From Bacteroides faecis (GTDB taxonomy: Bacteria > Bacillota > Clostridia > Oscillospirales > Acutalibacteraceae), in NCBI GenBank assembly GCA_963625295.1, contig CAVFTC010000001.1, forward strand, positions 1 through 63,171: a stretch of DNA of 63,171 nt. Reading direction: 5' to 3'. The stretch's first letter is position 1, and each line of letters begins with the position of its first letter. The notes under the pieces were generated by a model. It worked only from the letters and a program-made list of their open reading frames with translations. It did no database searches and was not told where the DNA came from. Below are positions 2,708-47,268 of the stretch, piece by piece. A program made the translations under genes and the position numbers.

Positions 2708-2734
2708 AAGGGCACAATCGTGCCCTTTGCTTTT
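2708..2734 (+). terminator. Rho-independent terminator
   Basis: AAGGGCAC-aatc-GTGCCCTT followed by a T-rich tail. Confidence 0.7.
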
Positions 2735-2744
2735 GGAGGCAAGC

Positions 2745-4019
2745 ATGGAATATAAAGATTTATCAAAGGAAAAGCTATTGGAAATAAAGAAAGAGCTTGA
2801 AGCCGAGTATGAGGCATTTAAGGCAATGGGACTTAAGCTTGATATGTCACGAGGCAAGCCGAACAAGGCTCAGCTCGACCTGACAAACGATATGCTTGAT
2901 ACGGTCAACTCGTCAAGCGATATGTCCGCCTCTGACGGCATGGAGACAAGGAACTACGGCGGACTTACGGGTATTCCGGAATGCCGCAAGCTCATGGCGG
3001 AGATCGTTGATGTTGACGAAAAGAATGTTATTCTCGGCGGTGTTGCAAGCCTTACGCTTATGTACGACTATATTTCTCAGTGCATGATTTTCGGCTGCGG
3101 CGGAAACGAGCCTTGGATAAAGCAGGGAGAAATCAAATTTCTCTGCCCCTGCCCCGGCTATGACAGGCATTTCGGAATTCTTGAGCATTTCGGCATCAAG
3201 ATGATAAACATTAAAATGAACGATGACGGTCCGGACATGGACAGCATCGAGGAATACATCAAGGATGAAAAGGTTAAAGGACTTTTCTGCGTTCCCAAGT
3301 ATTCAAATCCCGACGGAATAACATTTTCCGATGAGGTCGTTCGTCGTTTCGCCGCTCTCAAGCCTGCGGCAAAGGATTTCAGAGTAATCTGGGACAACGC
3401 CTACATTGTTCATGACCTCAACGACACACCCGACAAGCTGCTCAACATCTTTGACGAAGCAAAAAAATGCGGCAGTGAGGATATGTTCATCGAGGTTATC
3501 TCAACCTCAAAAATAAGCTTTGCCGGCGGCGGAATTTCCGCTGTTATCGCTTCGGACGCAAATATTGCCGAGATCAAGAAGCGAATGAGCATTCAAATCA
3601 TTTCAAACGATAAAATAAATCAGCTCAGACACGCAAGATATTTCAAAAATCTTGACGGCATAAAGGCACATATGAAAAAGCAGGCGACGATACTAAAGCC
3701 GAAATTCGATACGGTTACGGACGGCTTTGAAAAAGCATTTGACGGCACTGGCATTGCAAGCTGGAAAAAGCCTAACGGCGGATATTTCATCAGCCTGTTT
3801 GTCATGAAGGGCTGCGCAAAGCGTGTCGGAGAGCTTTGCAAGGAAGCCGGACTTACTCTGACAACAGTCGGTGCAACCTATCCCTACGGCATTGACCCCG
3901 ACGACAGCAACATCAGAATCGCGCCGTCATATCCCGATGTTGACGAGCTTCAAAAGGCAGTCGAGCTGCTTTGCATATGCGTCAAGCTTGCCGCCGTAGA
4001 AAAAATAACGGAAGAGTGA
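2745..4019 (+). CDS. PLP-dependent aminotransferase (class I/II fold)
   Basis: About 424 aa; SRGKP...LD motif region and the STSK lysine context typical of fold-type I aminotransferases. GGAGG RBS 5 nt upstream of the ATG at 2745. Confidence 0.8.
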   Translation: MEYKDLSKEKLLEIKKELEAEYEAFKAMGLKLDMSRGKPNKAQLDLTNDMLDTVNSSSDMSASDGMETRNYGGLTGIPECRKLMAEIVDVDEKNVILGGVASLTLMYDYISQCMIFGCGGNEPWIKQGEIKFLCPCPGYDRHFGILEHFGIKMINIKMNDDGPDMDSIEEYIKDEKVKGLFCVPKYSNPDGITFSDEVVRRFAALKPAAKDFRVIWDNAYIVHDLNDTPDKLLNIFDEAKKCGSEDMFIEVISTSKISFAGGGISAVIASDANIAEIKKRMSIQIISNDKINQLRHARYFKNLDGIKAHMKKQATILKPKFDTVTDGFEKAFDGTGIASWKKPNGGYFISLFVMKGCAKRVGELCKEAGLTLTTVGATYPYGIDPDDSNIRIAPSYPDVDELQKAVELLCICVKLAAVEKITEE

Positions 4020-4023
4020 TCCT

Positions 4024-5724
4024 ATGAACAAGCCCTTGTATGAAGTCAGAGAGTTTCACAATTTCAGAGAGCTGCTCAATCAAAGCGAGGAGCTTTACGG
4101 AAACAGCCCTGCATTCAAGATAAAAAACCAAATAGGTCAGATCCTCGACATAAGCTACACACGCTTCAAGGCTGATGTTGAGGCTCTCGGCACGGCATTG
4201 CTTGACCTCGGTCTTGAGGGCGAAAAAATAGCCGTTGCCGGGGCGAACAGCTATAAATGGTGTACAAGCTATCTTGCGGTTGGCTGCGGCGTAGGCGTTG
4301 TTGTTCCGACCGACAAGGAGCTCCCGTTTGACGACATTCTCAGCATACTGACCGTATCCGAAGCAAAGGCTGTCATCTTCGACAAAAAATTTGGAGAAAA
4401 GCTTCTTGATCATCGTGAAAAGCTGCCGAAAAATCTCATACTCATCTCAATGGAACAGAAAAAAGATTGTGACGGGATACTTTCCTACGACCTCATTTTA
4501 AACAACGGCTACCACCTTATCGGCAAAGGCAATTCGGATTACCTCGACCGTGAGGTTGCAGGCAACAAAATGACCGTTCTGCTCTTTACCTCGGGCACAA
4601 CGGGAATGTCAAAGGCAGTTATGCTCAGCGCAGATAATATCTGCTCCGATGTCAGAGCTATAATGGGATTTGTCAAGATCAACGAGGGTGAACGGATTCT
4701 TTCGCTGCTCCCTATACACCACACTTATGAATGTACGGTCACCTTCCTGTGCTGTCTTTACGGCGGTGTAACTATCTGCTTCTGCGACGGGCTTAGATAT
4801 ATCACAAAAAATCTTGAGGAATATAAGCCGAATATCTTGATCGTCGTTCCTCTCGTTCTTGAAAAATTTTACAAGCGAATAATGAAAGCAATCGACAAGG
4901 AACGGGGCGGTTCGGCAAAGGTTGCGCTTGCGAGCGCAATTACAAAGGCGGTCGGCGTTACAAAAATGGATGTCTCCAATATTTTCTTCGGGAAGATAAA
5001 AAAAGCCTTCGGCGGCTCGATAAGGCTCATCATTTCCGGAGCGGCGGGAATTGATCCGGAAATCATAAAAAATATGAACCGCTTCGGCATTCAGACCTTT
5101 CAGGGCTACGGCCTGACGGAATGCTCCCCTATCGTCATCTGCAACAGCGACAAGGATAACAAATACGACTCGATCGGTAAGCCTATCCCCTCTGTCGAAG
5201 CAAAGATTGTCAATCCCGATGAAAACGGAATCGGCGAAATCTGCATAAAAGGACCAATGGTCATGCTCGGCTACTATAAAGACCCTGACGCAACAAGGGC
5301 AACCTTTGACAGGAACGGCTGGTTTCATACCGGCGACCTCGGCAGAACCGACAAGGACGGTCATTATTATATCTGCGGCCGCTGCAAGAGCGTTATTGTT
5401 ACAACGAACGGTAAAAATGTTTATCCGGAGGAGCTTGAAAGTATGCTTCTCAGGGAAAAAGCGATCAAAGAGTGCATAGTAACCGGCCGAGAGGACGAGC
5501 GAGGCAACACTATTGTTTATGCCAGAATCTTTCCCGACCTCAAGGCGATCGGCGCAATGTACGGCAACAGGAGCATTACCGACAAAGAAATCAGCAAATC
5601 TGTTTCCGAAGCCGTCAAAAGCGTTAATTCACAGGTTGTCAGCTATAAATCGATCAAAAGATACGAAATCATCGATAAGGAGTTTGAAAAAACGACCACA
5701 TCGAAAATCAAACGGAATCAGTAA
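4024..5724 (+). CDS. AMP-dependent (long-chain-type) fatty-acid--CoA ligase
   Basis: 566 aa; AMP-binding signature LLFTSGTTGMSKAVMLS, and GYGLTE and TGDLG motifs. Confidence 0.9.
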   Translation: MNKPLYEVREFHNFRELLNQSEELYGNSPAFKIKNQIGQILDISYTRFKADVEALGTALLDLGLEGEKIAVAGANSYKWCTSYLAVGCGVGVVVPTDKELPFDDILSILTVSEAKAVIFDKKFGEKLLDHREKLPKNLILISMEQKKDCDGILSYDLILNNGYHLIGKGNSDYLDREVAGNKMTVLLFTSGTTGMSKAVMLSADNICSDVRAIMGFVKINEGERILSLLPIHHTYECTVTFLCCLYGGVTICFCDGLRYITKNLEEYKPNILIVVPLVLEKFYKRIMKAIDKERGGSAKVALASAITKAVGVTKMDVSNIFFGKIKKAFGGSIRLIISGAAGIDPEIIKNMNRFGIQTFQGYGLTECSPIVICNSDKDNKYDSIGKPIPSVEAKIVNPDENGIGEICIKGPMVMLGYYKDPDATRATFDRNGWFHTGDLGRTDKDGHYYICGRCKSVIVTTNGKNVYPEELESMLLREKAIKECIVTGREDERGNTIVYARIFPDLKAIGAMYGNRSITDKEISKSVSEAVKSVNSQVVSYKSIKRYEIIDKEFEKTTTSKIKRNQ

Positions 5725-34766: not shown

Positions 34767-35849
34767 TCAGTCAAGCTTTACCTTGTATGTCCAGCCCATG
34801 TCGTCCTCAACATGACCTGTCTGCATACCGTAGAGCGTATCGTAAAGCTTCTGAGCGATCGGACCTACATTGCCGTCGGCAACCTTGTAATCCTCGCCCA
34901 TGTAATAAAGTGTGCCGATCGGAGAGATAACTGCGGCAGTACCGCTGGCAAATACCTCCTTGAGAGTGCCTGCCTTGGAGGCTGCGCATACATCGTCGAT
35001 TGAAAGGCGTCTCTCCGATACCTTTACTCCCCACTTCTTGAGAAGCTCGATGACGGACTTTCTTGTAATACCGGGAAGAATCGTACCCATAAGCGGAGCA
35101 GTGATGACCTCGTCGCCGATTACGAAGAAGGCGTTTGAAGTGCCGATCTCCTCAACATACTTATGCTCAACAGCGTCAAGCCAAAGAACATCCTTGCAGT
35201 CATGCTCCATAGCCTTTGCCGAAGCCTTCATGCCACCTGCATAGTTGCCGCCGCACTTTGCAAAGCCTGTACCGCCGACAGCCGCACGGATGAATTCATC
35301 CTCAACATAAATCCTTGTCGTGTGAAGTCCGCCGTCGTTTGCGGCATAGTAAGAACCGACGGGGCAAAGAATGATGATAAAGCGATAATGCTTTGCCGGA
35401 AGAACGCTGAACGAAACCTCGTCGCCGAAGATAAACGGTCTGATATAAAGAGCGGTTGCCGGCTCGGTGGGTATCCAATCCTTATCAACGGTAATAAGCT
35501 GGTTGATGGCGTCAAAGAAAATATCCTTTTCCATATGCGGAATACACATACGGTCATTGGTTCTGTTCATACGCTCAAAGTTCTCCTCGGGTCTGAAAAG
35601 CTGAACATCGCCCGACGGAGTTTTATATGCCTTCATGCCCTCGAACATCATCTGGGCATAGTGGAGCACGCATGAAGCGGGTTCAATGGCGATCGGCTCA
35701 TGCGGAACAATTCTTCCGTCATGCCAGCCCTGTCCCTCATCGTAGTCGATCATAAACATATGATCCGTGAAATATTTACCGAAGCCGAGCTTCTTCTGAT
35801 CCGGCTTCTCCTTCGGATGTGTTGTTCTTGTTACTGGAAATGTATACAT
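34767..35849 (-). CDS. ilvE: Branched-chain amino acid aminotransferase
   Basis: About 360 aa from the ATG at 35849 (AAAGGAG RBS). Type IV aminotransferase motifs: FGKYFTDHMF, EGMKAY, GGTG.AK.GGNYA. Confidence 0.9.
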   Translation of the reverse strand: MYTFPVTRTTHPKEKPDQKKLGFGKYFTDHMFMIDYDEGQGWHDGRIVPHEPIAIEPASCVLHYAQMMFEGMKAYKTPSGDVQLFRPEENFERMNRTNDRMCIPHMEKDIFFDAINQLITVDKDWIPTEPATALYIRPFIFGDEVSFSVLPAKHYRFIIILCPVGSYYAANDGGLHTTRIYVEDEFIRAAVGGTGFAKCGGNYAGGMKASAKAMEHDCKDVLWLDAVEHKYVEEIGTSNAFFVIGDEVITAPLMGTILPGITRKSVIELLKKWGVKVSERRLSIDDVCAASKAGTLKEVFASGTAAVISPIGTLYYMGEDYKVADGNVGPIAQKLYDTLYGMQTGHVEDDMGWTYKVKLD

Positions 35850-35881
35850 TTCTGTCGCTCCTTTCAAAGCATTCATTTTGT

Positions 35882-35917
35882 CAATGCCGCACATCTCAAT
35901 TGTGCGGATTTGCCTTA
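35882..35917. repeat. Solo MITE terminus (contains the internal CCGCACA/TGTGCGG hairpin)
   Basis: The reverse complement reads TAAGGCAAATCCGCACAATTGAGATGTGCGGCATTG. Its terminal TAA is the stop codon of the C-N hydrolase gene. Confidence 0.75.
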
Positions 35918-36721
35918 TAATTCATAGAGATCGGGTTTTCTGTCGTTGAAAACATTGATCGAGCTTCTTATATCCTTTATTATTCCGAAATCGCAGTCAG
36001 CTGTGATGACCTCCTGCGCCTCGCCTGCCGCAGCGAGCACCTCGCCCCACGGGTCGATTATCTGCGAATGACCGCCGAAAACTGCGTCCGGTGTTTTTCC
36101 GCAGGAGTTGCAGCAGACAACAAACATCTGATTTTCAATCGCTCTTGCTCTTGTGAGTGTAACGATGTGTTCCTTTCTCGCAAGAGGCCACTGCGACACC
36201 ATAAACAGCATGTCAATGCCCCTTAGGGCAAGGCTTCTGACAAGCTCGCAGAAGCGGATATCGTAGCAGATTACGACGCCGCACTTATGTCCGTCAAGCT
36301 CGAAGGTCACAAGCTTTTCGCCGAAGCTAAAATATTTGTGCTCGTCCATCGGGGTGAAAAGGTGCGTCTTGTCATATTCGGCAACGACATCGCCCTTACG
36401 GTTGAAAACAAACGCCGTGTTGTAAATCCCGCCGTTCTTTTCGTTGGCGATACTGCCGGCAACGATGTTTACATTAAGCTCCCTTGCCAACGCCGAAAAG
36501 GTCTTTTTCAGCCTCTCGCCGTCTTTGTCACAATAGCTCGAAAGATTTTCCTTGGGATAATATCCCGTCGTCCATGTTTCGGGAAGAACGATAACATCGG
36601 ATTTTTCTTTCGCTGCCGTCTCCCTTATCAGTCTGACAGCCTCGTTGTAGTTATATTCAACATCGCCGAGCTTCATATCAAGCTGAATGCAGGAAGCCTT
36701 CATTGTATTATTCATAATCAT
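35915..36721 (-). CDS. Carbon-nitrogen hydrolase (nitrilase/omega-amidase superfamily)
   Basis: Catalytic E-K-C contexts: VLPE, the Lys in YDKTHLF and the Cys in GVVICYDIRF. Alternative starts are 36739, 36715 or 36703. Confidence 0.8.
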   Translation of the reverse strand: MIMNNTMKASCIQLDMKLGDVEYNYNEAVRLIRETAAKEKSDVIVLPETWTTGYYPKENLSSYCDKDGERLKKTFSALARELNVNIVAGSIANEKNGGIYNTAFVFNRKGDVVAEYDKTHLFTPMDEHKYFSFGEKLVTFELDGHKCGVVICYDIRFCELVRSLALRGIDMLFMVSQWPLARKEHIVTLTRARAIENQMFVVCCNSCGKTPDAVFGGHSQIIDPWGEVLAAAGEAQEVITADCDFGIIKDIRSSINVFNDRKPDLYEL

Positions 36722-37247
36722 AACCTGCCTTGACAGCACCCTTGTTCACATCAAGGAGATCAAGGTGACGGGCGGAAACAACCTTCTTGAGTGCGTCATC
36801 GGTATAATCAATCGAAAACTGCGGCACTTCCTTGAGAATCTTGCCCGTGATTATCATATTCGCAAGGGTCGGCGTTCCGTTATCGTTCGCCATTTTTGTT
36901 GCAGGAATATAATATACATCAACATCTGTTCTGTCAATCTTTTTGTCGATCATTGTTGAATCAACAAAAATCTTTCCGCCGCTGACAACATCGTTTTCGT
37001 ATTTTTCAAGTGACGGAAGATTCATTGCAACAAGCACATCCGGCTTGTCAACGATTGGAGAGCCGATCGGCTCGTCGCTGATAATCACGGAGCAGTTGGC
37101 AGTGCCGCCTCTCATTTCCGGTCCGTAGGACGGAAGCCAGCTGACCTGCTTGCCCTCGATAAGTCCCTTATATGCAAGGAATTTGCCTGCAAACAGAATT
37201 CCCTGTCCGCCGAAGCCTGCGAATAACATTCTGCAAGTGCTGCTCAT
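36708..37247 (-). CDS. 2-oxoacid:ferredoxin oxidoreductase, gamma subunit
   Basis: 179 aa; the GFGGQGI motif typical of POR/KOR/VOR gamma subunits. Confidence 0.85.
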
Positions 37248-37999
37248 TTTTCTTCCTCCTTTGCATAGATATCCTTGTAAACGCCGAGAGGATAGTAAGG
37301 AATCATGTTCTCCTCTGCCCAGTCAAGAGCCTTCTGCGGAGTCATTCCCCAGTTTGTAGGGCAGGTTGAAATAACCTCAACGAGAGAAAAGCCCTTGCCC
37401 TCAAGCTGATTCTTGAATGCCTTTTTGATAGCCTTTTTAGCGTTCTTGACATTTTTTACATTGTTGACAGCAACTCTCTCAAGATATGCCGCACCGTCAA
37501 CATTTGAAAGAAGCTCGCAAACCTTAACGGGATAGCCGACGGTGTTGACATCTCTGCCGTAGGGTGAGGTCTGGGTGACCTGACCGGGAAGCGTTGTCGG
37601 AGCCATCTGACCGCCCGTCATACCGTAAATAGCATTGTTAACGAAAATAACGGTGATATTCTCCCGTCTTGCAGCGGCATGAACCGTCTCGGCAGTACCG
37701 ATAGCGGCAAGGTCGCCGTCGCCCTGATATGTGAATACAACCTTTGACGGGTCGCTTCTCTTAACGCCTGTTGCAACGGCAGGAGCACGGCCGTGAGCCG
37801 CCTGAACAAAATCACATGTGAAATAGTTATATGCCATAACAGAGCAGCCGACCGATGCGACGCCGATCGTATCACCCTCGATTCCAAGCTCATCAATTAC
37901 CTCTGCAACCAGACGGTGAATAATACCGTGAGTACAGCCGGGACAATAGTGAAGCGTTGCGTCCGTCAATGATTTCGGTTTTTCAAATACAACTGACAT
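37244..37999 (-). CDS. 2-oxoacid:ferredoxin oxidoreductase, beta (TPP-binding) subunit
   Basis: CPGCTHG, GDGD....G and [10 protein letters not shown] motifs. The start at 37999 overlaps the alpha stop (TAATG). Confidence 0.85.
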
Positions 38000-39057
38000 T
38001 ATTCTGCACCTCCGTTTGACATGATAGCCGAAAGAACATCCTCCGGCGTCGGGATCATTCCGCCGACACGGTTGCAAAGCTCAACCGGTCTTTTGCAATC
38101 GATCGCAAGCTTCACATCGTCGATCATCTGACCCATGTTCATTTCAACAGTTATAAATCTCTTGCACTTCTCGGCAGCAGCCTTGAGCGGCTTTGTCGGG
38201 AACGGCCAGAGCGTGATCGGTCTTATCATGCCGACCTTGACGCCTCTCTTGCGTGCCTCATTGACTGCGTTCTTTGCCACACGGGCGGTGATACCGAACG
38301 CAACAACGCAAACCTCGGCGTCCTCCATGAGATATTCCTCGTACATCGTTTCGTTTTCTTCGATCGTCTTATATTTCTGATATCTCTCGAAATTCTTTAT
38401 TTCAAGCTCCTCGGGCTTGAGGTAAAGCGAATTGACTATGTTATGCTCTCTCTCACACTTTGTGCCGGTGAGTGCCCACGGCTTTTCAACCGGAGTTACC
38501 TCGGCAACATCGAGGGAAACCGGCTCCATCATCTGACCCATTGTGCCGTCGGCAAGGATCATTGCAACCATTCTGTATTTATCCGCAAGCTCAAAGCCCT
38601 TGACGGTGAGGCTTGCCATTTCCTGAACGGAAGCCGGTGCAAGTACGATATTGTGGTAATCGCCGTGTCCGCCACCCTTTGTTGACTGCCAGTAATCCGA
38701 CTGTGAGGGCTGAATTCCGCCGAGTCCGGGGCCGCCACGCTGAACATTGACCACGAGTGCGGGAAGGTCGCAGCCGGCGAGATATGAAATACCCTCGCTT
38801 TTAAGCGAAACTCCGGGGCTGGAGGAGGAGGTCATGACTCTCTTGCCTGTTGACGAAACGCCGATAACCATGTTGATTGCAGCGATCTCGCTCTCCGCCT
38901 GCAGGAATGTTCCGCCGATCTTCGGCATACGCTTTGACATGTAAGCCGCAACCTCTGTCTGCGGAGTTATGGGATAACCGAAGTAATGTCGGCAGCCTGC
39001 TCTGATAGCAGCCTCGGCAATTGCTTCGTTGCCTTTCATAAGTACTTTATCTGACAT
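37999..39057 (-). CDS. vorB: 2-oxoacid:ferredoxin oxidoreductase, alpha subunit (VorB-like)
   Basis: [36 protein letters not shown]-terminus typical of VorB/KorA-type alpha subunits. The longer track ORF runs into the ferredoxin gene. Confidence 0.8.
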
Positions 39058-39062
39058 TTTCT

Positions 39063-39269
39063 TCACCTCTCTACCGTAATAACACAATCGGGGCACATTG
39101 TAGCGCAGAAGGCGCATCCGATACACTTTTCCTGTTCCGTCACAACTGCGGGATGATGTCCCTTGTTGTTCAAAGTCGTCTCTGACAAATGAACTATTCC
39201 CTTGGGACAAGCGTTCACGCAAAGTCCGCAGCCCTTGCAAAGGTCTGTTTTGAATGTTACTTTAGCCAT
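39063..39269 (-). CDS. 2x[4Fe-4S] ferredoxin (delta subunit)
   Basis: Two CxxCxxCxxxCP motifs in 68 aa. Confidence 0.9.
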   Translation of the reverse strand: MAKVTFKTDLCKGCGLCVNACPKGIVHLSETTLNNKGHHPAVVTEQEKCIGCAFCATMCPDCVITVER

Positions 39270-39281
39270 TTGACATTCCTC

Positions 39282-39938
39282 CTAATTTATTTTCGCCTGT
39301 AGGGTAAGCGGAAGCATATTGCTCACTCGCCCGTACAGCTCTTTATAAAGCGTCTTTTTTACGGTAGTCATCGCAACGGGAAGCCCCGTAAGCTTTGAAA
39401 CCTCATCGGCATATTTGAGCGAATCAAGAACATCCTGAGCGGTCGTCTCCTCGCCGAGATTTGAGTTGTTTATTATAGCCGTAAATTTCATTGAACCGGC
39501 TTTTTCGATTTCATTCATGACCTCAAGGGTGCTGTAAGCGTCCCTTGTCAGCGGTCTGTACATGTTTATTACAAGAAACATCTCATAGTCGTTTTCCCGT
39601 ACTATGCTTTCGGAATAGCGGCCGAGAGCGTATGCGCCTCTGTCGTCGCCGCCGATATCCATAACAGCGTATTCCGTGCGGTCGTCAATGACAGAATATA
39701 TATCCTGCGGCAGCGAGGGAAGATCAACATTTGAGCTTGCAAAGTCCGAGCAGATAAGTCTTATCCCGGCGGCTTTAAGCTCCTTTTCGCTGTCCTTGGT
39801 TCTGAAATACGGGTTGACGATATCCAAATCCGCAACAGCCACCTCAAGACCCTGCTGTCTGAGCTTAAAAGCGTAATTGACCGCTATATTCGTTTTTCCG
39901 CTGCCGTAATGACCGGCAAAAAGCGTTATGCGCTTCAT
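39282..39938 (-). CDS. MinD/ParA/CooC-like P-loop ATPase
   Basis: Deviant Walker A GHYGSGKTN; 218 aa; first gene of the oxidoreductase operon. Confidence 0.7.
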   Translation of the reverse strand: MKRITLFAGHYGSGKTNIAVNYAFKLRQQGLEVAVADLDIVNPYFRTKDSEKELKAAGIRLICSDFASSNVDLPSLPQDIYSVIDDRTEYAVMDIGGDDRGAYALGRYSESIVRENDYEMFLVINMYRPLTRDAYSTLEVMNEIEKAGSMKFTAIINNSNLGEETTAQDVLDSLKYADEVSKLTGLPVAMTTVKKTLYKELYGRVSNMLPLTLQAKIN

Positions 39939-40338: not shown

Positions 40339-42609
40339 TTACAGCTGATTACGGATGATTTTGCCGCTTATAGTCTTTGGAAGCTCGTCCTTGAACACAA
40401 CGATTCTCGGGTACTTGTAAGGAGCGGTGTGCTTCTTAACATAGTTCTGAATTTCTTTTTTAAGCTCCTCGGTCGGCTCTGTGCCCTTGGTAAGGACAAT
40501 GGAAGCCTTGACGACCTGTCCTCTTACCTCGTCGGGAGCAGCGGAAACGCCGCACTCAAGAACATAAGGAAGCTCCATGATAACATTTTCGATCTCGAAC
40601 GGTCCGATACGGTAGCCGGACGATTTGATAACATCGTCGATACGGCCGACATACCAGAAATATCCGTCCTCATCACGCCATGCGATATCGCCCGTGTGAT
40701 AAACGCCGTCGTGCCAAACCTCGTCTGTACGATCCTGATTTCTGTAGTAGCCGAGGAATATACCGCACGGTACTTTCTCGGAAGTGTTGACGCAGATTTC
40801 ACCGGTTTCACCGATATCCGCTTCCGTTCCGTCGGGACGAAGAATCTTGATGTCGTAAAGCGGCGTCGGCTTGCCCATTGAGCCGGGCTTCGGAGTCATT
40901 CCGGTGAGCGTTGCTATTCCAAGAGTCATCTCCGTTTGACCGAAGCCCTCCATAAGCTCAAGTCCGGTAGCATTATAGAACTGGCGGAATACCTCCGGGT
41001 TAAGTGCCTCACCGGCTGTTGTTGCGTGACGGATAGAGGAAAGATCGTACTTTGCGAGATCCTCCTTTATCATCATTCTGTACATCGTCGGAGGTGCGCA
41101 GAATGTTGTGATGTTATATTGCTTGAACATCGGAAGAATATCCGACGCATCGAAGCGGTCGAAGTTATATACAAATACTGCGCCCTCGCAGAGCCACTGT
41201 CCGTAGAGCTTGCCCCAAAGAGCCTTGCCCCAGCCGGTGTCGGAGATTGTAAGGTGAAGTCCGTCCTTGCTTACGCAGTGCCAATATTTAGCGGTGATAT
41301 AGTGTCCGAGCGGATATTTGTAGGAATGGGTTGCGATTTTCGGATAGCCCGTTGTGCCGGAGGTGAAGAACATAAGCATCGGATCGTTTCCGCACGGTGC
41401 GTCCTCTTCCCTTCTGTATCTTCTGGAGAACAGGCTGTATTCGCTGTCGAAGCTGTGCCAGCCCTCACGCTCGCCGCCGACAATGATTTTGTTGACGAGA
41501 GTATGCGTCTTTGCGTCGGCGATGTCAACCTGATGAGCGGTGTCGCCGTCGGCTGTGCAAAGAATTGTCGTTACTCCTGCCGCCTCAAATCTGTACTCAA
41601 AGTCATGGTCAACAAGAAGATTCGTTGCCGGAATTGCGATTGCGCCGATCTTATGAAGCGCAAGGATTGCAAACCAGAACTGATAATGACGCTTGAGAAC
41701 AAGCATTACCCTGTCGCCCTTCTTTATGCCGAGCGACTTGAAGTAGTTGGCCGCCTGTGCCGAGTGCTCCTTGACATCCTTAAATGTGAAGATGCGTTCC
41801 GTCTTATCGCGGTCAACATGAACGAGTGCACGCTTGTCAGGGGATTTTTTTGCAATTTTATCAACGATATCAAAAGCGAAGTTGAATTCATCCTCATGAT
41901 TAAAATCAATGGAAACAAGATTTCCGTTTTCGTCCTCTGTTGCGTCAATAAACTTCTCGCAAACATAGCTGCCCTTTGCCTTTACGCCCTTGACAGCTCT
42001 TTCGTGAACGATATTCGTTACCGTATCATCACTTGCCATGACCATCGCAAGGAAGAGACAATCCCTGCCGTCGATGGCAACCATTCCGTGAGGCGTTGAG
42101 GAGTTATAATAAATGCTGTCGCCCTCGTTAAGAATCTCCTCATGATTTCCGACTCTTACTCTCAGTGAACCGCTGATAACGATATCGAACTCCTGACCAC
42201 CGTGAGTTACGGTGCTTATCGGTTTATTTTCAAGCTCCGCGTCATACTCGTATCTAACCCAGTACGGCTCGGAAAGCTTTTTTCTGAAATTCGGTGCAAG
42301 GTTTTTGATTTCGATTCCGTTCTCGCTGGCGGTGATCTGACCCTTGCCCAGTCTTGTAACGGTATAGGATGAAAGCACGGCGCTGTGACCTTCAAGAAGA
42401 TCCGTAATGCCAATGTCAAAAGCAAGTGCACACTTGTGAATAAAAGTGAAAGGAAGGTCAACCGTTCCGCTCTCATAGAGCCTGTAGGTTTCAACAGAGA
42501 CTTCAGACTTCTCCGCCATTTCCTCAACGGTAAAGCCGCATATGTCTCTCATTTCCTGGATACGCTCAGCAACCTCATAAAGCTTGTTTGATTCGTTTTG
42601 ATTTGACAT
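40339..42609 (-). CDS. XRE-HTH + cupin domain fused to an AMP-forming medium-chain acyl-CoA synthetase
   Basis: N-terminal ~190 aa: HTH (ICGFTVEEMAEKSEVSVETYRLYESG) and cupin (GQEFDIVISGSL...YYNSSTPHGM). Remainder: ACSM/MacS-like ligase (MFFTSGTTGYPK, YGQTE, YHTGD, SGKIIR). Confidence 0.85.
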   Translation of the reverse strand: MSNQNESNKLYEVAERIQEMRDICGFTVEEMAEKSEVSVETYRLYESGTVDLPFTFIHKCALAFDIGITDLLEGHSAVLSSYTVTRLGKGQITASENGIEIKNLAPNFRKKLSEPYWVRYEYDAELENKPISTVTHGGQEFDIVISGSLRVRVGNHEEILNEGDSIYYNSSTPHGMVAIDGRDCLFLAMVMASDDTVTNIVHERAVKGVKAKGSYVCEKFIDATEDENGNLVSIDFNHEDEFNFAFDIVDKIAKKSPDKRALVHVDRDKTERIFTFKDVKEHSAQAANYFKSLGIKKGDRVMLVLKRHYQFWFAILALHKIGAIAIPATNLLVDHDFEYRFEAAGVTTILCTADGDTAHQVDIADAKTHTLVNKIIVGGEREGWHSFDSEYSLFSRRYRREEDAPCGNDPMLMFFTSGTTGYPKIATHSYKYPLGHYITAKYWHCVSKDGLHLTISDTGWGKALWGKLYGQWLCEGAVFVYNFDRFDASDILPMFKQYNITTFCAPPTMYRMMIKEDLAKYDLSSIRHATTAGEALNPEVFRQFYNATGLELMEGFGQTEMTLGIATLTGMTPKPGSMGKPTPLYDIKILRPDGTEADIGETGEICVNTSEKVPCGIFLGYYRNQDRTDEVWHDGVYHTGDIAWRDEDGYFWYVGRIDDVIKSSGYRIGPFEIENVIMELPYVLECGVSAAPDEVRGQVVKASIVLTKGTEPTEELKKEIQNYVKKHTAPYKYPRIVVFKDELPKTISGKIIRNQL

Positions 42610-42651: not shown

Positions 42652-42947
42652 AACAAAAAATCCGTCCCAAAGTCATTAGAACTTTGAGACGGATTTGAAT
42701 ATCCGCGGTACCACTCAAATTGCGATCTGCTATTGCTTCTCGCCTCTCTGCAGGATCTGACAATCCCTCAACACTGACGTAGTTGTCACGGGAGAAACTA
42801 CTGTAGTTTTCATCTCTCCGGCTCGGAAGTGATGGGCTTTACATTTACCTCGCTATCGGCTCGCACCAAACGCCGACTCTCTGAAAGGACATAAACGCAA
42901 CCGTCTTCGTCACAGCCTTTGTTTCAACAGGTTATTTGTACCTGTTG
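42652..42947 (-). promoter_or_regulatory. T-box riboswitch leader, putative Ile (AUC) specifier
   Basis: Minus strand shows a K-turn (TGACGAAG / CTTCCGAGCC), AGAGAG bulge, distal loop GGTGCGA, T-box AATTTGAGTGGTACCGCGG (42703-42721) and the terminator TCCGTCTCAAAG...CTTTGGGACGGA + TTTTTT. Confidence 0.85.
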
Positions 42948-42953
42948 CGGTAC

Positions 42954-42982
42954 ATTATAAGATACTTTTCACAATTTTTCAA
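42954..42982 (-). promoter_or_regulatory. Promoter of the T-box(Ile) leader
   Basis: On the minus strand: TTGAAA, 17 nt, TATAAT. Confidence 0.7.
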
Positions 42983-43019: not shown

Positions 43020-45518
43020 TTACGCAGTTACAACAGAATTTGCCTTTTGCAGTCCGTATTTCTTGATTGCGTCCTCACGCATCTTGTATTTAAGAATCTT
43101 ACCGGCAACATTCATCGGGAACTCGGACACAAAGTCAATGTACTTCGGCACTTTATGCTTCGCCATATGAGAAAGAACATAGTCCTTCATCTCCTGCTCG
43201 GTCATGGTTTCGCCCTCCTTGAGGATAATGCAAGCCATTATCTCCTCGCCGAGTCCCTCGTCGGGAACGCCGATTACCTGAACATCCTTGACCTTCGGGT
43301 GGGTGTAAATGAACTCCTCAATCTCCTTGGGATAGATATTCTCGCCGCCACGGATAATCATATCCTTAAGTCTGCCTGTGATTCTGTAGTTGCCCTCCGG
43401 AGTGCGGCACGCAAGGTCGCCGGTATGAAGCCAGCCGTCCTTGTCGATTGCGCTTGCCGTAGCCTTCGGCATTTTATAGTAACCCTTCATGATGTTGTAT
43501 CCACGGGCAACGAACTCACCGGTCACATTGTCCGGGCATTCAAGACCCGTATCGGGGTCAACGATTTTACATTCGATTTTCGGAAGCGGATGACCGACAG
43601 TAGCCACACGATCCTCCAGCGGGTCGTCAGTGCTGCTCATCGTACAGCCCGGAGATGATTCCGTCTGACCGTAAACGATTGTGATTTCGGTCATATGCAT
43701 TTTTTCGACAACCTCACGCATCTTTGAGATCGGACACGGCGAGCCTGCCATGATACCCGTTCTCATGTATGAAAAATCGGTCTTTTCAAAGTCGGGGTGC
43801 TGTAGCATTGCGATAAACATCGTCGGAACGCCGTGGAAAGCCGTTATACGCTCGGAATTTATACACGCAAGCGATGATTTCGGCGAGAAATACGGTAATG
43901 GGAGAGCCGTTCCGCCGTGGGTCATGATGGCAGTCATGGCAAGAACCATGCCGAAGCAATGGAACATCGGAACATGGATCATCATTCTGTCCGCCGTTGA
44001 AAGATCCATTCTGTCGCCGATACACTTACCGTTGTTTACGACATTGTAGTGGGTAAGCATAACGCCCTTCGGGAAGCCTGTTGTACCGGAGGTGTACTGC
44101 ATATTGCATACATCGTCCCTCCTGACAAGAGAAGCCATTCTGTAGACCTCCTCGACAGGAACCTCGCTCGACTTGTCAACCGCCTGCTCCCATGTCATAC
44201 AGCCCTGCTGCTCATAGCCGACCGTAATAATATTTCTCAAAAACGGCAATCTCTTTGCGTGGAGCTTTTCGCCGCTCTTGGTGCTTTCCAGCTCAGGGCA
44301 AAGCTCAGCCATGATCTCGTCATAGTGTGAGTCTCTGTAGCCCTTTATCATAATCAGCGTATGAGTATCCGACTGTCTGAGCAGATATTCCGCCTCGTGA
44401 ATTTTATATGCCGTGTTCATTGTAACAAGAACAGCGCCGATTTTGGTGGTCGCCCAAAACGAAATATACCACTGCGGAACATTGGTTGCCCAAACGGCAA
44501 CATGAGAGCCGGCTTTTACGCCCATTGCAATAAGCGCTCTCGCAAAGGTATCAACATCGTCACGGAACTGCGCATATGTTCTCGTATAGTCAAGCGTTGT
44601 ATATTTGAATGCAAGCTGATCGGGAAACTCCTCAACCATTCTGTCAAGAACCTGCGGGAATGTCTCCTCGATAAGCTCCTCTTTTTTCCAGATGAATTTG
44701 CCTGTATGGGTCTTGTTGTAGTAGTATTTCTTCTTGCTTGTCTCGTCCGCAACAGTCTCCATAAAGCTCTCATAATGAGTCAAAATGATTTCAAGATCGT
44801 CTATCGACTCGAACCACTCGGGATTCCATTCAACGCAAACAAAGCCGTTGTAATTTATCGAGCCGAGAGCATTCATCATGTCCTTGATAGGCATTGCGCC
44901 CTCGCCGATGAGAGTGTGCTCGCCTGCCTTCACGGCGTCGGTCAGATGGACAAGCTTGACATATGCGCCAAGGTTGGTAATGGTCTTTTCCGAATCCTCG
45001 CCGCCGACGAAGTATGTTTCATACATATTCCAATCTGCGCCGATAAAGTCGCTTGCAAAATAGTTCATCAAATCGCAGAGCCTTGTCGTGTCGGCAAAAA
45101 TGCCCGTCGTTTCGACAAGGACGATAACATTGTGCTTTTCGCCCTCTGCGATAGCCTTGCCGATGAACTCAAGCGCCTTTTCGTAAGCGTCTTCGCCACC
45201 CTCAACATAGAGCTTGACATAGGGAATGTTTATGTTGCTTGCAACGGTGATAGCCGAGTTCATTTTTTCAATATTTTCGTCGGAATTATCTGCGGCGTTG
45301 CAGTTTGAATTTATGCAAACTATGCTCTTTTTCGAGTTGATGAGCTTTCTTTTGGTTGCCGAAGCCATGTCAGGATTAAACGGTGAGGTTCTGCCTGAAA
45401 ACATTGCGTCACGAAAATCGTGGATCTCAACTCCGCCGTATTTCAGCTCATCCGCCATATTGAGAAAGTCATCAAAGCTTTTATTCTTATGAAATCTTGT
45501 AGAAAAAGCTAATTTCAC
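43020..45518 (-). CDS. Xylose-isomerase-like TIM-barrel domain fused to an AMP-dependent acyl-CoA ligase
   Basis: N-terminal ~270 aa resemble AP-endonuclease-2 / sugar-phosphate-isomerase TIM barrels. The C-terminal ~560 aa are a FadD-type ligase (MQYTSGTTGFPKGVMLTH, YGQTE, LHTGD, AGKILK). GTG start with a GGAGGG RBS, 2 nt after the upstream stop. Confidence 0.8.
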   Translation of the reverse strand: MKLAFSTRFHKNKSFDDFLNMADELKYGGVEIHDFRDAMFSGRTSPFNPDMASATKRKLINSKKSIVCINSNCNAADNSDENIEKMNSAITVASNINIPYVKLYVEGGEDAYEKALEFIGKAIAEGEKHNVIVLVETTGIFADTTRLCDLMNYFASDFIGADWNMYETYFVGGEDSEKTITNLGAYVKLVHLTDAVKAGEHTLIGEGAMPIKDMMNALGSINYNGFVCVEWNPEWFESIDDLEIILTHYESFMETVADETSKKKYYYNKTHTGKFIWKKEELIEETFPQVLDRMVEEFPDQLAFKYTTLDYTRTYAQFRDDVDTFARALIAMGVKAGSHVAVWATNVPQWYISFWATTKIGAVLVTMNTAYKIHEAEYLLRQSDTHTLIMIKGYRDSHYDEIMAELCPELESTKSGEKLHAKRLPFLRNIITVGYEQQGCMTWEQAVDKSSEVPVEEVYRMASLVRRDDVCNMQYTSGTTGFPKGVMLTHYNVVNNGKCIGDRMDLSTADRMMIHVPMFHCFGMVLAMTAIMTHGGTALPLPYFSPKSSLACINSERITAFHGVPTMFIAMLQHPDFEKTDFSYMRTGIMAGSPCPISKMREVVEKMHMTEITIVYGQTESSPGCTMSSTDDPLEDRVATVGHPLPKIECKIVDPDTGLECPDNVTGEFVARGYNIMKGYYKMPKATASAIDKDGWLHTGDLACRTPEGNYRITGRLKDMIIRGGENIYPKEIEEFIYTHPKVKDVQVIGVPDEGLGEEIMACIILKEGETMTEQEMKDYVLSHMAKHKVPKYIDFVSEFPMNVAGKILKYKMREDAIKKYGLQKANSVVTA

Positions 45519-45520
45519 AA

Positions 45521-46936
45521 TTAACCCTCCTCGTATGCTATCTTGTTCAGTGCGCTGACATATGCACGGATGCTTGCGCCGATAATATCTGTCGAAATGC
45601 CTGTTCCGGAATAGAGCTTTCCGGTCGAGCTTCTGAGCTTAACGAGCGCATGACCCATGGCCTCACGACCCTCGGTAACGGCTTGAATCTGGAAATCGTC
45701 CAGCTCGTAGTGATGTCCGATAATCTGCTCGATTGCAAGAAACGCCGCATCAATCGGACCGTCTCCGACGCTCACACCGCTGACCACCGTGCCATCCTTG
45801 ACAAGCTTGATGTTAGCGGTTGCGGTAATAATGTTACCGCTGTTGATAACATAGCTTTCAATCGAATAGCTTGAGGGAACCTGCAATGCGGAGGAGGCTA
45901 TAATTACTTCAAGCTCCTTTGTGCCGACAAAGTCCTTCTTAACGGCAACACGCTTGAACGCCTCATAAACATTTGAATTATCCTCGGGAGAAAGGTCGTA
46001 GCCGATTTTTTTAACCGCCTTTATAACGGTTGCTATCGTGTCGTTTTTATCAAGAGTGAGGCTCTCGCCGTCCTCGTTTACACCTGTTTCAAACGGCGTA
46101 TTCTCACTCTTGGAGGTGTTGAGCATTCTTTTTATTTGACCCGTAACACGCTGAAGCTCTGTCGTCCTTATCTTGCTTGAGGCCTTTATAGAATCACCTC
46201 TGAGGGTGAATATCTTCATGATTTTTTCAACCGTCGGGAAGTTGAAATTGTCTGCCGTAACCTTGATCTGCGACGCTCCGGCTTCGATTGCGGCGAATGC
46301 GGAGGCGGAGGCCATGTTCATTGAGTCAACGACCTCAACGCCGACCGTAGCATTCTTGGCGGACGGAACATTCTCAAAAATATCCGAGATAAAGCCGCCG
46401 AATTCGGACGGGAACATCGTACCCTCGGAGTCGCAAACAGTGACCCTCGTTGCGCCTGCCTTTATCGCTTCTTCTATCGCCTGATACAGGAACGGTCTTT
46501 CGGCTCTCACTGCGTCCTCAGCCGAGAATTCAATGCTGTCGGTGTACTTTTTGCACTCGGTGATAAGCTCTGTTACCATGCTCATCACCACCGGCGGCTT
46601 TTTGCCGCACTTGAACTCCATCTGAACCGCAGACATCGGGAGAGAAACCTTAAGAGAAAACTTCTTTGCACCCTTTGCGCAGTTATAAGCCGTTTCAACG
46701 CCCGCCGCATCATAACCAACATCAACGGCGATTTCCGAATGCTTCATAAGCGAAGCGATCGTTTTTATAAGAAGAACATCGGTTGATGTGTTCTTTATTT
46801 TCGGCATCTCGATGATATCGCAGTGCAGCTTGTCCATCTGCTTTGCGATCTCGATCTTCTCCTTAAAGCTTAAGGAATGGCTGGCTGACGACTCGCTTTC
46901 TCTGAGCGTCACATCGGATAAAATTACTTTTCTCAT
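45521..46936 (-). CDS. 2-isopropylmalate-synthase homolog (HMGL-like TIM barrel + LeuA regulatory domain) with degenerate catalytic motifs
   Basis: 471 aa from the ATG at 46936 (AAAGGAG RBS). Colinear with LeuA, but DTTLRDGEQ is SDVTLRESES, HTHxD is VEVVD and GIGERAGN is ADNFNFPT. The C-terminal LeuA-dimer-like domain is intact. Confidence 0.8.
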   Translation of the reverse strand: MRKVILSDVTLRESESSASHSLSFKEKIEIAKQMDKLHCDIIEMPKIKNTSTDVLLIKTIASLMKHSEIAVDVGYDAAGVETAYNCAKGAKKFSLKVSLPMSAVQMEFKCGKKPPVVMSMVTELITECKKYTDSIEFSAEDAVRAERPFLYQAIEEAIKAGATRVTVCDSEGTMFPSEFGGFISDIFENVPSAKNATVGVEVVDSMNMASASAFAAIEAGASQIKVTADNFNFPTVEKIMKIFTLRGDSIKASSKIRTTELQRVTGQIKRMLNTSKSENTPFETGVNEDGESLTLDKNDTIATVIKAVKKIGYDLSPEDNSNVYEAFKRVAVKKDFVGTKELEVIIASSALQVPSSYSIESYVINSGNIITATANIKLVKDGTVVSGVSVGDGPIDAAFLAIEQIIGHHYELDDFQIQAVTEGREAMGHALVKLRSSTGKLYSGTGISTDIIGASIRAYVSALNKIAYEEG

Positions 46937-46959: not shown

Positions 46960-47233
46960 AAAAAAACAAAGTCCCGGAAGTATTCAAACTTCCGGGACGA
47001 TAAAACATGTTTACCGCGGTACCACCCGCATTGCCTAAACGGCCTCTTCGGATTCTGACAAATCCTAAGCTGTGATAACGGTGCTTGCCGTAGCTCCTTA
47101 TACAGTAAAGACGGTTGGGGAGCTCTGCTCGGATACGAGACAGCAATTAAATTTCCATATCGGCTCACACCTACCGCCGACTCTCTGAAATCAGAAATAA
47201 AACGCTTAATATCTTCAACGCATTTCAAATATT
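46960..47233 (-). promoter_or_regulatory. T-box riboswitch leader, putative Leu (CUC) specifier
   Basis: Minus strand shows a K-turn (GCGTTGAAGATA / TATCCGAGCA), AGAGAG bulge, distal loop GGTGTGA, T-box GCGGGTGGTACCGCGG (47014-47029) and the terminator GTCCCGGAAG...CTTCCGGGAC + TTTGTTTTTTT. Confidence 0.85.
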
Positions 47234-47239
47234 GCAGTT

Positions 47240-47268
47240 ATTATAGTAAACTTTTTTTAATTTGTAAA
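47240..47268 (-). promoter_or_regulatory. Promoter of the T-box(Leu) leader
   Basis: On the minus strand: TTTACA, 17 nt, TATAAT. Confidence 0.7.

Follow-up and report, generated by a model that had tools for sequence, protein, structure and literature searches.

In isopropylmalate synthase (LeuA), the C-terminal regulatory domain binds leucine, and in the short-form ATP phosphoribosyltransferase HisG histidine is sensed by a regulatory subunit, HisZ, which is an inactive paralogue of HisRS. It has been known since the 1960s that rumen bacteria build leucine, isoleucine and valine from isovalerate, 2-methylbutyrate and isobutyrate, and this incorporation of branched acids underlies the branched-chain volatile-fatty-acid requirement of fibre-degrading bacteria. 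The carboxylation of isovalerate on the way to leucine is given as classical rumen physiology in the passages of PMC7356843 that cite Allison 1962 and 1966, and a route from 2-methylbutyrate to isoleucine is cited in a passage of PMC2812497. The PF08502 domain cut out of CimA is an autonomous isoleucine sensor (PMC13381585). Here, we describe a gene for a LeuA-like protein of 471 amino acids (aa), located at positions 45521 to 46936 on the reverse strand of contig CAVFTC010000001.1 (assembly GCA_963625295.1), a DNA stretch of 63,171 nucleotides (nt) filed under Bacteroides faecis and assigned by GTDB to the Acutalibacteraceae. The whole 63-kb stretch is called the window in the following, and its LeuA-like product the window protein. 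The gene is paired with that of an acyl-CoA ligase and, as far as sequence can tell, there is about an even chance that its product lacks catalytic activity and serves an isovalerate-CoA ligase as a regulatory subunit that senses leucine.

The open reading frame extends from an ATG at 46936, served by an AGGAG ribosome-binding site, to a TAA at 45523-45521, and encodes a degenerate HMGL-like TIM barrel (aa 1-270, 46936..46127, reverse strand), a shortened accessory region (aa 271-335) and a LeuA_dimer regulatory domain (aa 336-471, 45931..45524, reverse strand). Pfam places HMGL-like (PF00682) at residues 3-227, covering profile positions 1-219 of 260 (E 3e-37), and LeuA_dimer (PF08502) at residues 340-466 (E 8.5e-30). 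The AlphaFold2 model, computed from an alignment of 73 family sequences that also served for column conservation, has a predicted local distance difference test score (pLDDT) of 84.7; its eight-stranded barrel is intact (pLDDT >90) and residues 275-291 are disordered. The best Foldseek matches of this model are LeuA structures, among them the barrel of Listeria LeuA (3ewb; TM 0.93, root-mean-square deviation 1.8 Å), and the full-length matches include leucine-bound M. tuberculosis LeuA. The initial annotation of this DNA had described a protein aligning end-to-end with LeuA, with an HMGL-like barrel and a LeuA_dimer domain. Homology, fold and domain order bear this out, although the match is not strictly end-to-end, because about 28 residues of subdomain I are deleted.

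The nearest curated NCBIfam models are the bacterial LeuA equivalogs, each of which scores far under its cut-off (NF002086, the top one, reaches 293 bits against 532, and TIGR00973 reaches 269 against 599). These equivalogs match in two stretches; the LeuA models NF002991 and TIGR00970 have their best stretch in the C-terminal domain, and a citramalate-synthase model has its best stretch in the barrel, at residues 118-229. Database entries for members of the family read hypothetical protein or alpha-isopropylmalate synthase regulatory domain-containing protein, and in part also, wrongly, 2-isopropylmalate synthase. Since some pipelines use this last name, a false leuA step would enter metabolic reconstructions and auxotrophy predictions, and the description of the family corrects a likely source of such calls.

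The main departure from LeuA concerns the catalytic residues. In alignments against the solved barrels 3ewb and 3rmj and against E. coli LeuA (phmmer against the PDB, and MAFFT with the LeuA proteins of E. coli, Listeria and Neisseria), TLRDGEQ is replaced by TLRESES, with loss of the metal-binding Asp; HCHDD is replaced by EVVDS, with loss of both His of the HxH motif; and GIGERAGN is replaced by ADNF, a 4-aa gap and NFPT. These three changes are exactly those reported in the initial annotation, which had missed two more: the TSxxH motif reads MSAVQ, its His being replaced by Gln105, and the subdomain-I segment that contains HxSGIHxDG falls within the deletion of about 28 aa. In the M. tuberculosis enzyme (MtIPMS), the substitutions R80A, R80K and E218A each abolish activity (PMC10464499), and subdomain I carries the catalytic His379 as well as Tyr410 (PMC9860122).

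The same loss extends throughout the family, as judged from 106 cluster representatives with a mutual identity of at most about 50% and an identity to the window protein down to 29%. The HxSGIHxDG segment is present in none of them. The position of the DRE Arg, at which the window protein retains R12, is occupied by R in 35 representatives, K in 26, C in 17 and A in 6, besides others. At the position of the metal Asp, E (18), Q (13), N (11), K (10), S (9) and D (9) are found together with further residues; the first His position is held by E (25), Q (14), S (11), C (10), R (9) and others, and the second one by S (58), A (8), N (8) and others. Catalytic positions are thus changed in the window protein and unconstrained across the family, by which the pseudoenzyme reading of the initial annotation is well supported, and the barrel is predicted to be no longer capable of the metal-dependent Claisen condensation of isopropylmalate synthase. 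Two other homologues, of LeuA length, show partial losses of their own: P0259 (511 aa) has TLCDGEQ and lacks both HxH and HxSGIH, and P0252 (516 aa) has kept HxH and lost HxSGIH. There may be other pseudo-LeuA lineages, independent or intermediate.

If the ligands were merely shifted in the alignment, the protein could be a functional synthase of isopropylmalate, citramalate or homocitrate, which would be in keeping with the preserved LeuA fold and domain order and with a position under a leucine (Leu) T-box, like that of true leuA. Such an enzyme is nevertheless extremely improbable here: four independent alignments agree on the loss of the ligands, no His is available near strand 7, the HxSGIHxDG segment is physically absent, the LeuA equivalogs score below 55% of their cut-offs, and the gene never stands beside leuBCD in 84 LeuA-like loci. 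These loci, numbered from L001 onward, come from other genomes and metagenomes, and their flanks were read to at most 10 kb; neither in these flanks nor in the 63-kb window was a canonical leuA or leuBCD found. A shift of the ligands had been named beforehand, in the initial annotation, as an observation that would refute its reading. The phmmer matches to the PDB, the MAFFT alignment with canonical LeuA and the alignments of divergent members all show loss and none of them shows displaced ligands; an alignment artefact is excluded because the catalytic loss is family-wide across the 106 representatives.

The gene is not a relic. Genes of the family, with open reading frames of 455-480 aa, were counted in at least 575 GTDB species genomes, the hosts being gut and rumen Clostridia, and about 130 of the best 150 matches in a library of 50%-identity cluster representatives are full-length. 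Comparison with close relatives gives ratios of non-synonymous to synonymous substitution rates (dN/dS) of 0.05-0.07 in the barrel and 0.02-0.04 in the regulatory domain, so purifying selection on both is strong. A decaying pseudogene or an annotation artefact, for which the lost motifs speak and nothing beyond them, is effectively refuted by the intact reading frames in those species, by dN/dS values far below 1 and by the conservation of the ribosome-binding site, the coupling and the leader. Residual isopropylmalate synthase activity and decay, even taken jointly, are very improbable. The combination of lost catalytic residues and purifying selection matches the pattern of pseudoenzymes that act as regulatory subunits.

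Regarding the hosts, the same species-level locus was found in identical gene order over 21 kb on hundreds of assemblies (L090-L093; cluster of P0001). The 90% cluster of P0001 has 949 members, one of which, P0276, lies on 194 contigs (the longest of 2.39 Mb), and the carrier of the locus is a very prevalent organism. The genome records of L009 and L010, 88-94% identical to the window at this locus, bear the label Coriobacteriaceae or Eggerthellaceae, whereas L011 (an 87% relative) and more distant relatives are filed as Acutalibacteraceae or Clostridia; the assignment to Actinobacteria seems to be an error of binning or labelling.

No other part of the protein is as conserved as the regulatory domain, which the initial annotation had already called well conserved in the window sequence. 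Family members share 57% pairwise identity in this domain and 32% in the barrel, and 62% of its columns are conserved to 90% or more, a level reached by 21% of the barrel columns (73 sequences). The gradient is the opposite of that in the single canonical pair taken as baseline, E. coli LeuA and P0267, which share 30% of the regulatory domain and 50% of the barrel. The top-conserved block reads GDGPIDAAF...HYELDDFQI.AVTEG.EAMG...KLR..G.LYSG.G.STDI.GASI.AY..ALNKI. Within the domain, the GDGP(I/V)DA loop, L412, F415 and A426 are invariant or nearly so, and they align to G531-N-G-P-L535-A536, V551, Y554 and A565 of MtIPMS, residues which we take to line the leucine pocket (G531-A536, V551, Y554 and A565). 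In E. coli LeuA, the change G462D, which confers resistance to feedback, lies at the GDGP loop.

The second line of evidence is the gene that follows. On the same strand, at 43020..45518, lies the gene for a protein of 832 aa in which a xylose-isomerase-like TIM domain (aa ~1-270) is fused to an ANL acyl-CoA ligase (aa ~290-832), as recognised by Pfam (AP_endonuc_2, AMP-binding and AMP-binding_C) and NCBIfam (PRK12583, 691 bits). The core motifs of the ligase, TSGTTGFPK, YGQTE, TGD, GRLKD and AGK, are all intact. Its GTG start at 45518 lies 2 nt past the TAA of the LeuA-like gene, which confirms the translational coupling that had been proposed from the window alone, and the fusion gene is located directly 3' of the LeuA-like gene, on the same strand, in 82 of the 84 loci; in the remaining two, the contig ends less than 400 nt downstream. 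Stop and start codons overlap in many loci, with a spacing of -4 nt in 17 and of -1 nt in three, and lie 1-8 nt apart in 34; the arrangement is retained even in members that are only 29-35% identical. The two genes are an obligate pair. Fusions of the LeuA-like protein with a ligase were not found among the best 150 of 1.84 billion representatives, the longest of which (502-516 aa) are of LeuA type.

Within the fusion protein, the ligase domain is 63-99% identical across relatives and the TIM domain is the least conserved part (34-95%), evolving faster than any other part of the pair. The canonical Glu/Asp/His/Glu ligands of the latter are partly kept, E136 being K in 14 of 71 sequences and E230 being lost in 16 of 71, so that this domain may be a second degenerate barrel acting as a docking module. 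Searched on its own, it returned only four matches, mostly truncated fusions and hence uninformative, and its PDB matches are weak in sequence and limited to uncharacterised sugar-phosphate isomerase-like proteins. Pairwise distances correlate between the dead barrel and the TIM domain of the fusion (r 0.76) and between the regulatory domain and the ligase (r 0.68), which is weakly suggestive of two contact pairs. An Amidohydro_2 gene is often found 3' of the ligase in related loci.

The pair, here called the Leu unit, is preceded on the reverse strand by a sigma-70-like promoter (47240..47268; TTTACA, 17 nt, TATAAT), a consensus match only, which agrees at 11 of 12 consensus positions and is located directly upstream of a T-box leader (46990..47227). 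This leader matches the full Rfam model RF00230 with 94.9 bits (gathering score 93), contains the T-box sequence GGGUGGUACCGCG and carries the leucine specifier CUC; it ends in a strong intrinsic terminator (46971..46998, reverse strand) formed by an 11-bp stem and a T-run. The Leu T-box of the initial annotation is therefore real and general as well: in a scan of the 450 nt ahead of the gene, a T-box motif was found in 67 of 81 loci, with CUC in at least 38 of these and CUG in one, according to counts obtained with a simple anchor and alignments (a refined script was out of register for many LeuA-like leaders and was set aside). The specifier is followed by G in the window and in L003, and by A in L005. 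Upstream of the gene in L001, AzlC and AzlD are encoded and no T-box was detected.

Finally, the window encodes an acyl-CoA ligase, a 2-oxoacid:ferredoxin oxidoreductase and an aminotransferase together, between 34767 and 45518, and this set recurs in related loci. Judged by sequence similarity, these enzymes would make up the set that the rumen route of branched-acid carboxylation requires. The Leu T-box and the neighbouring genes point to isovalerate as the probable substrate of the ligase and to isovaleryl-CoA as that of the oxidoreductase.

Among the possibilities raised by the initial annotation, a sensor or scaffold for the ligase appears to be the best supported, and the mechanism that we favour would operate as follows. 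Uncharged tRNA-Leu would turn transcription on through the T-box, so that the unit is induced at leucine starvation. The LeuA-like protein would be made stoichiometrically with the TIM-ligase fusion and would most likely form a complex with it. The ligase would convert isovalerate to isovaleryl-CoA, the oxidoreductase would reductively carboxylate isovaleryl-CoA to 2-ketoisocaproate, and a branched-chain aminotransferase or a leucine dehydrogenase would convert the latter to leucine. Leucine bound to the LeuA-like regulatory domain would then restrain the ligase, which would provide fast feedback on the first committed, ATP-consuming step. We infer four elements of this scheme, namely the physical complex, leucine as the ligand, the restraint of the ligase in the leucine-bound state and isovalerate as the substrate.

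A different role in the same complex can be envisaged, in which the protein has no catalytic function but contributes to structure, assembly or channelling as a subunit either of the ligase or of a complex of ligase and oxidoreductase, and its C-terminal domain serves for dimerisation or binds another ligand such as 2-ketoisocaproate, isovalerate or an acyl-CoA. The obligate pairing, the coupling and the loss of catalytic motifs fit this scaffold equally well, PF08502 is by its Pfam name also the dimerisation domain of LeuA, and the barrel distances co-vary with those of the TIM domain of the fusion (r 0.76, as above). It is unlikely all the same, if not negligibly so: few positions are as conserved as the GDGP(I/V)DA ligand loop and the residues aligned to the pocket, a T-box specific for Leu suggests that leucine is the relevant signal, and the LeuA models of NCBIfam match in the C-terminal domain, whereas a citramalate-synthase model has its best stretch in the barrel.

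The barrel could also have been remodelled, perhaps together with the TIM domain, to catalyse a novel conversion of some leucine-salvage intermediate, for example isovaleryl-CoA or 2-ketoisocaproate, either metal-free or with other metal ligands. The low dN/dS of the barrel is compatible with such a repurposed enzyme, as is the near invariance of R12, E13, Q105, E136, D141 and D169 of the LeuA-like barrel in the close subfamily, and the Amidohydro_2 gene that often follows the ligase hints at extra chemistry. However, across the wider, always ligase-paired family, positions 12, 13, 105, 201 and 203 are held by chemically unrelated residues, and this free variation at pocket positions makes a conserved catalytic site hard to reconcile with the data. 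In addition, the active-site cap contributed by subdomain I has been deleted, and the isovalerate-to-leucine route requires no additional enzyme. A new catalytic activity is accordingly distinctly unlikely.

Several points weigh against a leucine-sensing regulatory subunit. The complex, the binding of leucine and the inhibition of the ligase are predicted from gene context and sequence. The ligand of PF08502 differs elsewhere, being isoleucine in CimA. The barrel is strongly constrained and shares the invariant polar residues D8, T10, S102, D141, R144 and D169 with LeuA, which makes a ligand-binding or catalytic role of the barrel possible. In these clusters, the isoleucine (Ile) and valine (Val) ligases described below lack a LeuA-like partner and have a helix-turn-helix (HTH)-cupin module instead. 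In 14 of the 81 loci, the 450 nt ahead of the gene contain no T-box motif, and the xylose-isomerase-like TIM domain of the fusion has no explained role. The mirror-tree signal given by the distance correlations is weak, because domains of similar evolutionary rate correlate trivially. Lastly, the Leu-unit ligase belongs to a PRK12583-like ANL subfamily, apart from the known short branched-acid ligases, and because of this difference isovalerate is its substrate by inference only; the solved ligases nearest to it, feruloyl-, malonyl- and fatty-acyl-CoA synthetases, are uninformative in this respect.

Further downstream on the same strand, a second unit (the Ile unit) has its own sigma-70-like promoter (42954..42982), again a consensus match only, with 11 of 12 positions, and its own T-box leader (42682..42922; RF00230, 103.2 bits), in which the isoleucine specifier AUC is followed by A; its terminator lies at 42696..42658. 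The unit encodes a protein of 756 aa (40339..42609, reverse strand) in which HTH_3 and Cupin_2 are fused to a short branched acyl-CoA ligase of the MacS/MbcS kind (Pfam; NCBIfam MbcS model, 432 bits; PDB 3etc, 647 bits), for which a 2-methylbutyrate-CoA ligase function is proposed; the ligase probably activates 2-methylbutyrate. The HTH_3 and Cupin_2 module is complete and has the architecture of a small-molecule-responsive regulator, and the protein may combine enzymatic and regulatory functions, or it may be a ligase that contains its own sensor. Two tandem HTH-cupin-ligase genes are present in several genomes (L041, L045, L059, L065, L067, L069, L070 and L086). Where their leaders are readable, one carries AUC (Ile), and in L041 and L086 another carries GUA (Val); the single HTH-cupin-ligase gene of L074 has GUA as well, all these specifier assignments being crude readings. 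The pattern suggests that each branched-chain amino acid has a ligase of its own.

The Ile unit is followed, still on the reverse strand, by the gene of a CbiA/ParA-like P-loop protein of 218 aa (39282..39938; Pfam and synteny), which sits between the ligase and VOR delta, a position kept in about 25 related loci, and which perhaps has a role in cluster or cofactor insertion. A four-subunit VOR-type 2-oxoacid:ferredoxin oxidoreductase (36708..39269) was identified by Pfam (POR_N, PFOR_II, TPP_enzyme_C and POR), and independent gene calls agree on it. It consists of delta, a 68-aa ferredoxin with Cys motifs (39269..39063), alpha (39057..37999), beta (37999..37244) and gamma (37247..36708), all on the reverse strand. 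Between gamma and the aminotransferase lies a gene for a carbon-nitrogen hydrolase family protein (35915..36739, reverse strand; CN_hydrolase, E 3.8e-56), which is kept in the closest relatives and has no obvious role in the pathway. The class IV (branched-chain) aminotransferase itself is IlvE-like (34767..35894, reverse strand; Aminotran_4) and recurs in related loci. These neighbours, the VOR-type oxidoreductase, IlvE and the T-box ligases for Ile and Val, lay outside the initial annotation.

In other loci, the neighbours of the LeuA-like and ligase pair include a single-chain PFOR, IlvE, a leucine-dehydrogenase-like gene, AzlCD and Amidohydro_2. The single-chain PFOR-type enzyme (~1160 aa) replaces the four-subunit VOR in L001, L019, L031, L033, L036, L076 and L085, which are Blautia, Lachnospiraceae and Christensenella-type loci with Amidohydro_2 directly after the TIM-ligase gene. 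Elsewhere in the window, on the forward strand, a further AMP-binding ligase of 566 aa (4024-5724) directly follows an aspartate-aminotransferase-family gene (2727-4019), and the two may form another acid-to-amino-acid conversion pair.

A wider reading, which we advance tentatively and rate somewhat short of an even chance, brings these units together. The LeuA paralogue would be an allosteric leucine-sensing subunit that docks through the degenerate TIM barrel of the ligase and, with the Leu, Ile and Val T-boxes and the HTH-cupin-ligase fusions, would represent the missing genes and a two-tier regulation of the Allison route in hundreds of species of gut and rumen Clostridia. In a full-text search of the searchable literature, neither the LeuA-like pseudoenzyme nor the fusion ligase nor any control of branched-acid ligases by T-boxes was found described, nor did any paper treat the genes or regulation of the branched-acid carboxylation route; what it returned was background only. 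Pseudoenzymes that act as allosteric subunits are known, and one that derives from LeuA and serves an acyl-CoA ligase would, to our knowledge, be new. If this reading is correct, a sixty-year-old pathway gains a set of genes spread over at least 575 species and equipped with amino-acid-specific T-boxes, together with a testable idea of how its flux is controlled post-transcriptionally. Gene-level and regulatory handles would thereby become available for a pathway of importance to both rumen and gut.

The comparison with the classical branched-acid route is one of genes with physiology: the locus supplies ligases, a VOR- or PFOR-type oxidoreductase and an aminotransferase in gut and rumen Clostridia, whereas the older work defined the physiology and not the genes or their regulation. 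Among characterised ligases, MbcS from S. aureus (PMC10026030) and MacS from M. acetivorans (PDB 3etc) are close relatives of the neighbouring 756-aa ligase (647 bits to 3etc), although the HTH-cupin module of the latter is absent from both. The partner of the LeuA-like protein differs from them in belonging to the PRK12583-like ANL subfamily and in its N-terminal xylose-isomerase-like TIM domain.

With HisZ, the proposed system shares its logic, in that a dead paralogue of a pathway-related enzyme would be kept as the allosteric subunit of the first committed enzyme. Fold and partner are unrelated, and the complex and allostery are experimental for HisZ and predicted for the LeuA-like protein. 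The same feedback logic is paralleled by the sensor-like HTH-cupin module fused to the Ile and Val ligases. The PF08502 domain of CimA is the same type of autonomous branched-chain amino-acid sensing module (PMC13381585), but it senses isoleucine on an active enzyme, whereas here the barrel is dead and leucine is the presumed ligand.

The closest relative remains LeuA itself (EC 2.3.3.13; TIGR00973/PRK00915), a DRE-TIM metallolyase with which the family has in common the fold, the domain order and the GxGP(I/V)DA loop; a Leu T-box is likewise common to the LeuA-like gene and to the leuA operons of Firmicutes. In contrast to LeuA, the metal ligands, GIGERAGN and the subdomain-I segment have been lost, the position of the catalytic Arg varies across the family (R12 in the window protein), and in the loci compared the gene stands beside an acyl-CoA ligase and never beside leuBCD. 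The gradient of conservation between the two domains is inverted with respect to the one canonical pair compared. If the proposed role is correct, this would be a clean case of allosteric-domain reuse, in which the sensor has been kept more strongly than in that active LeuA pair and now controls another enzyme.

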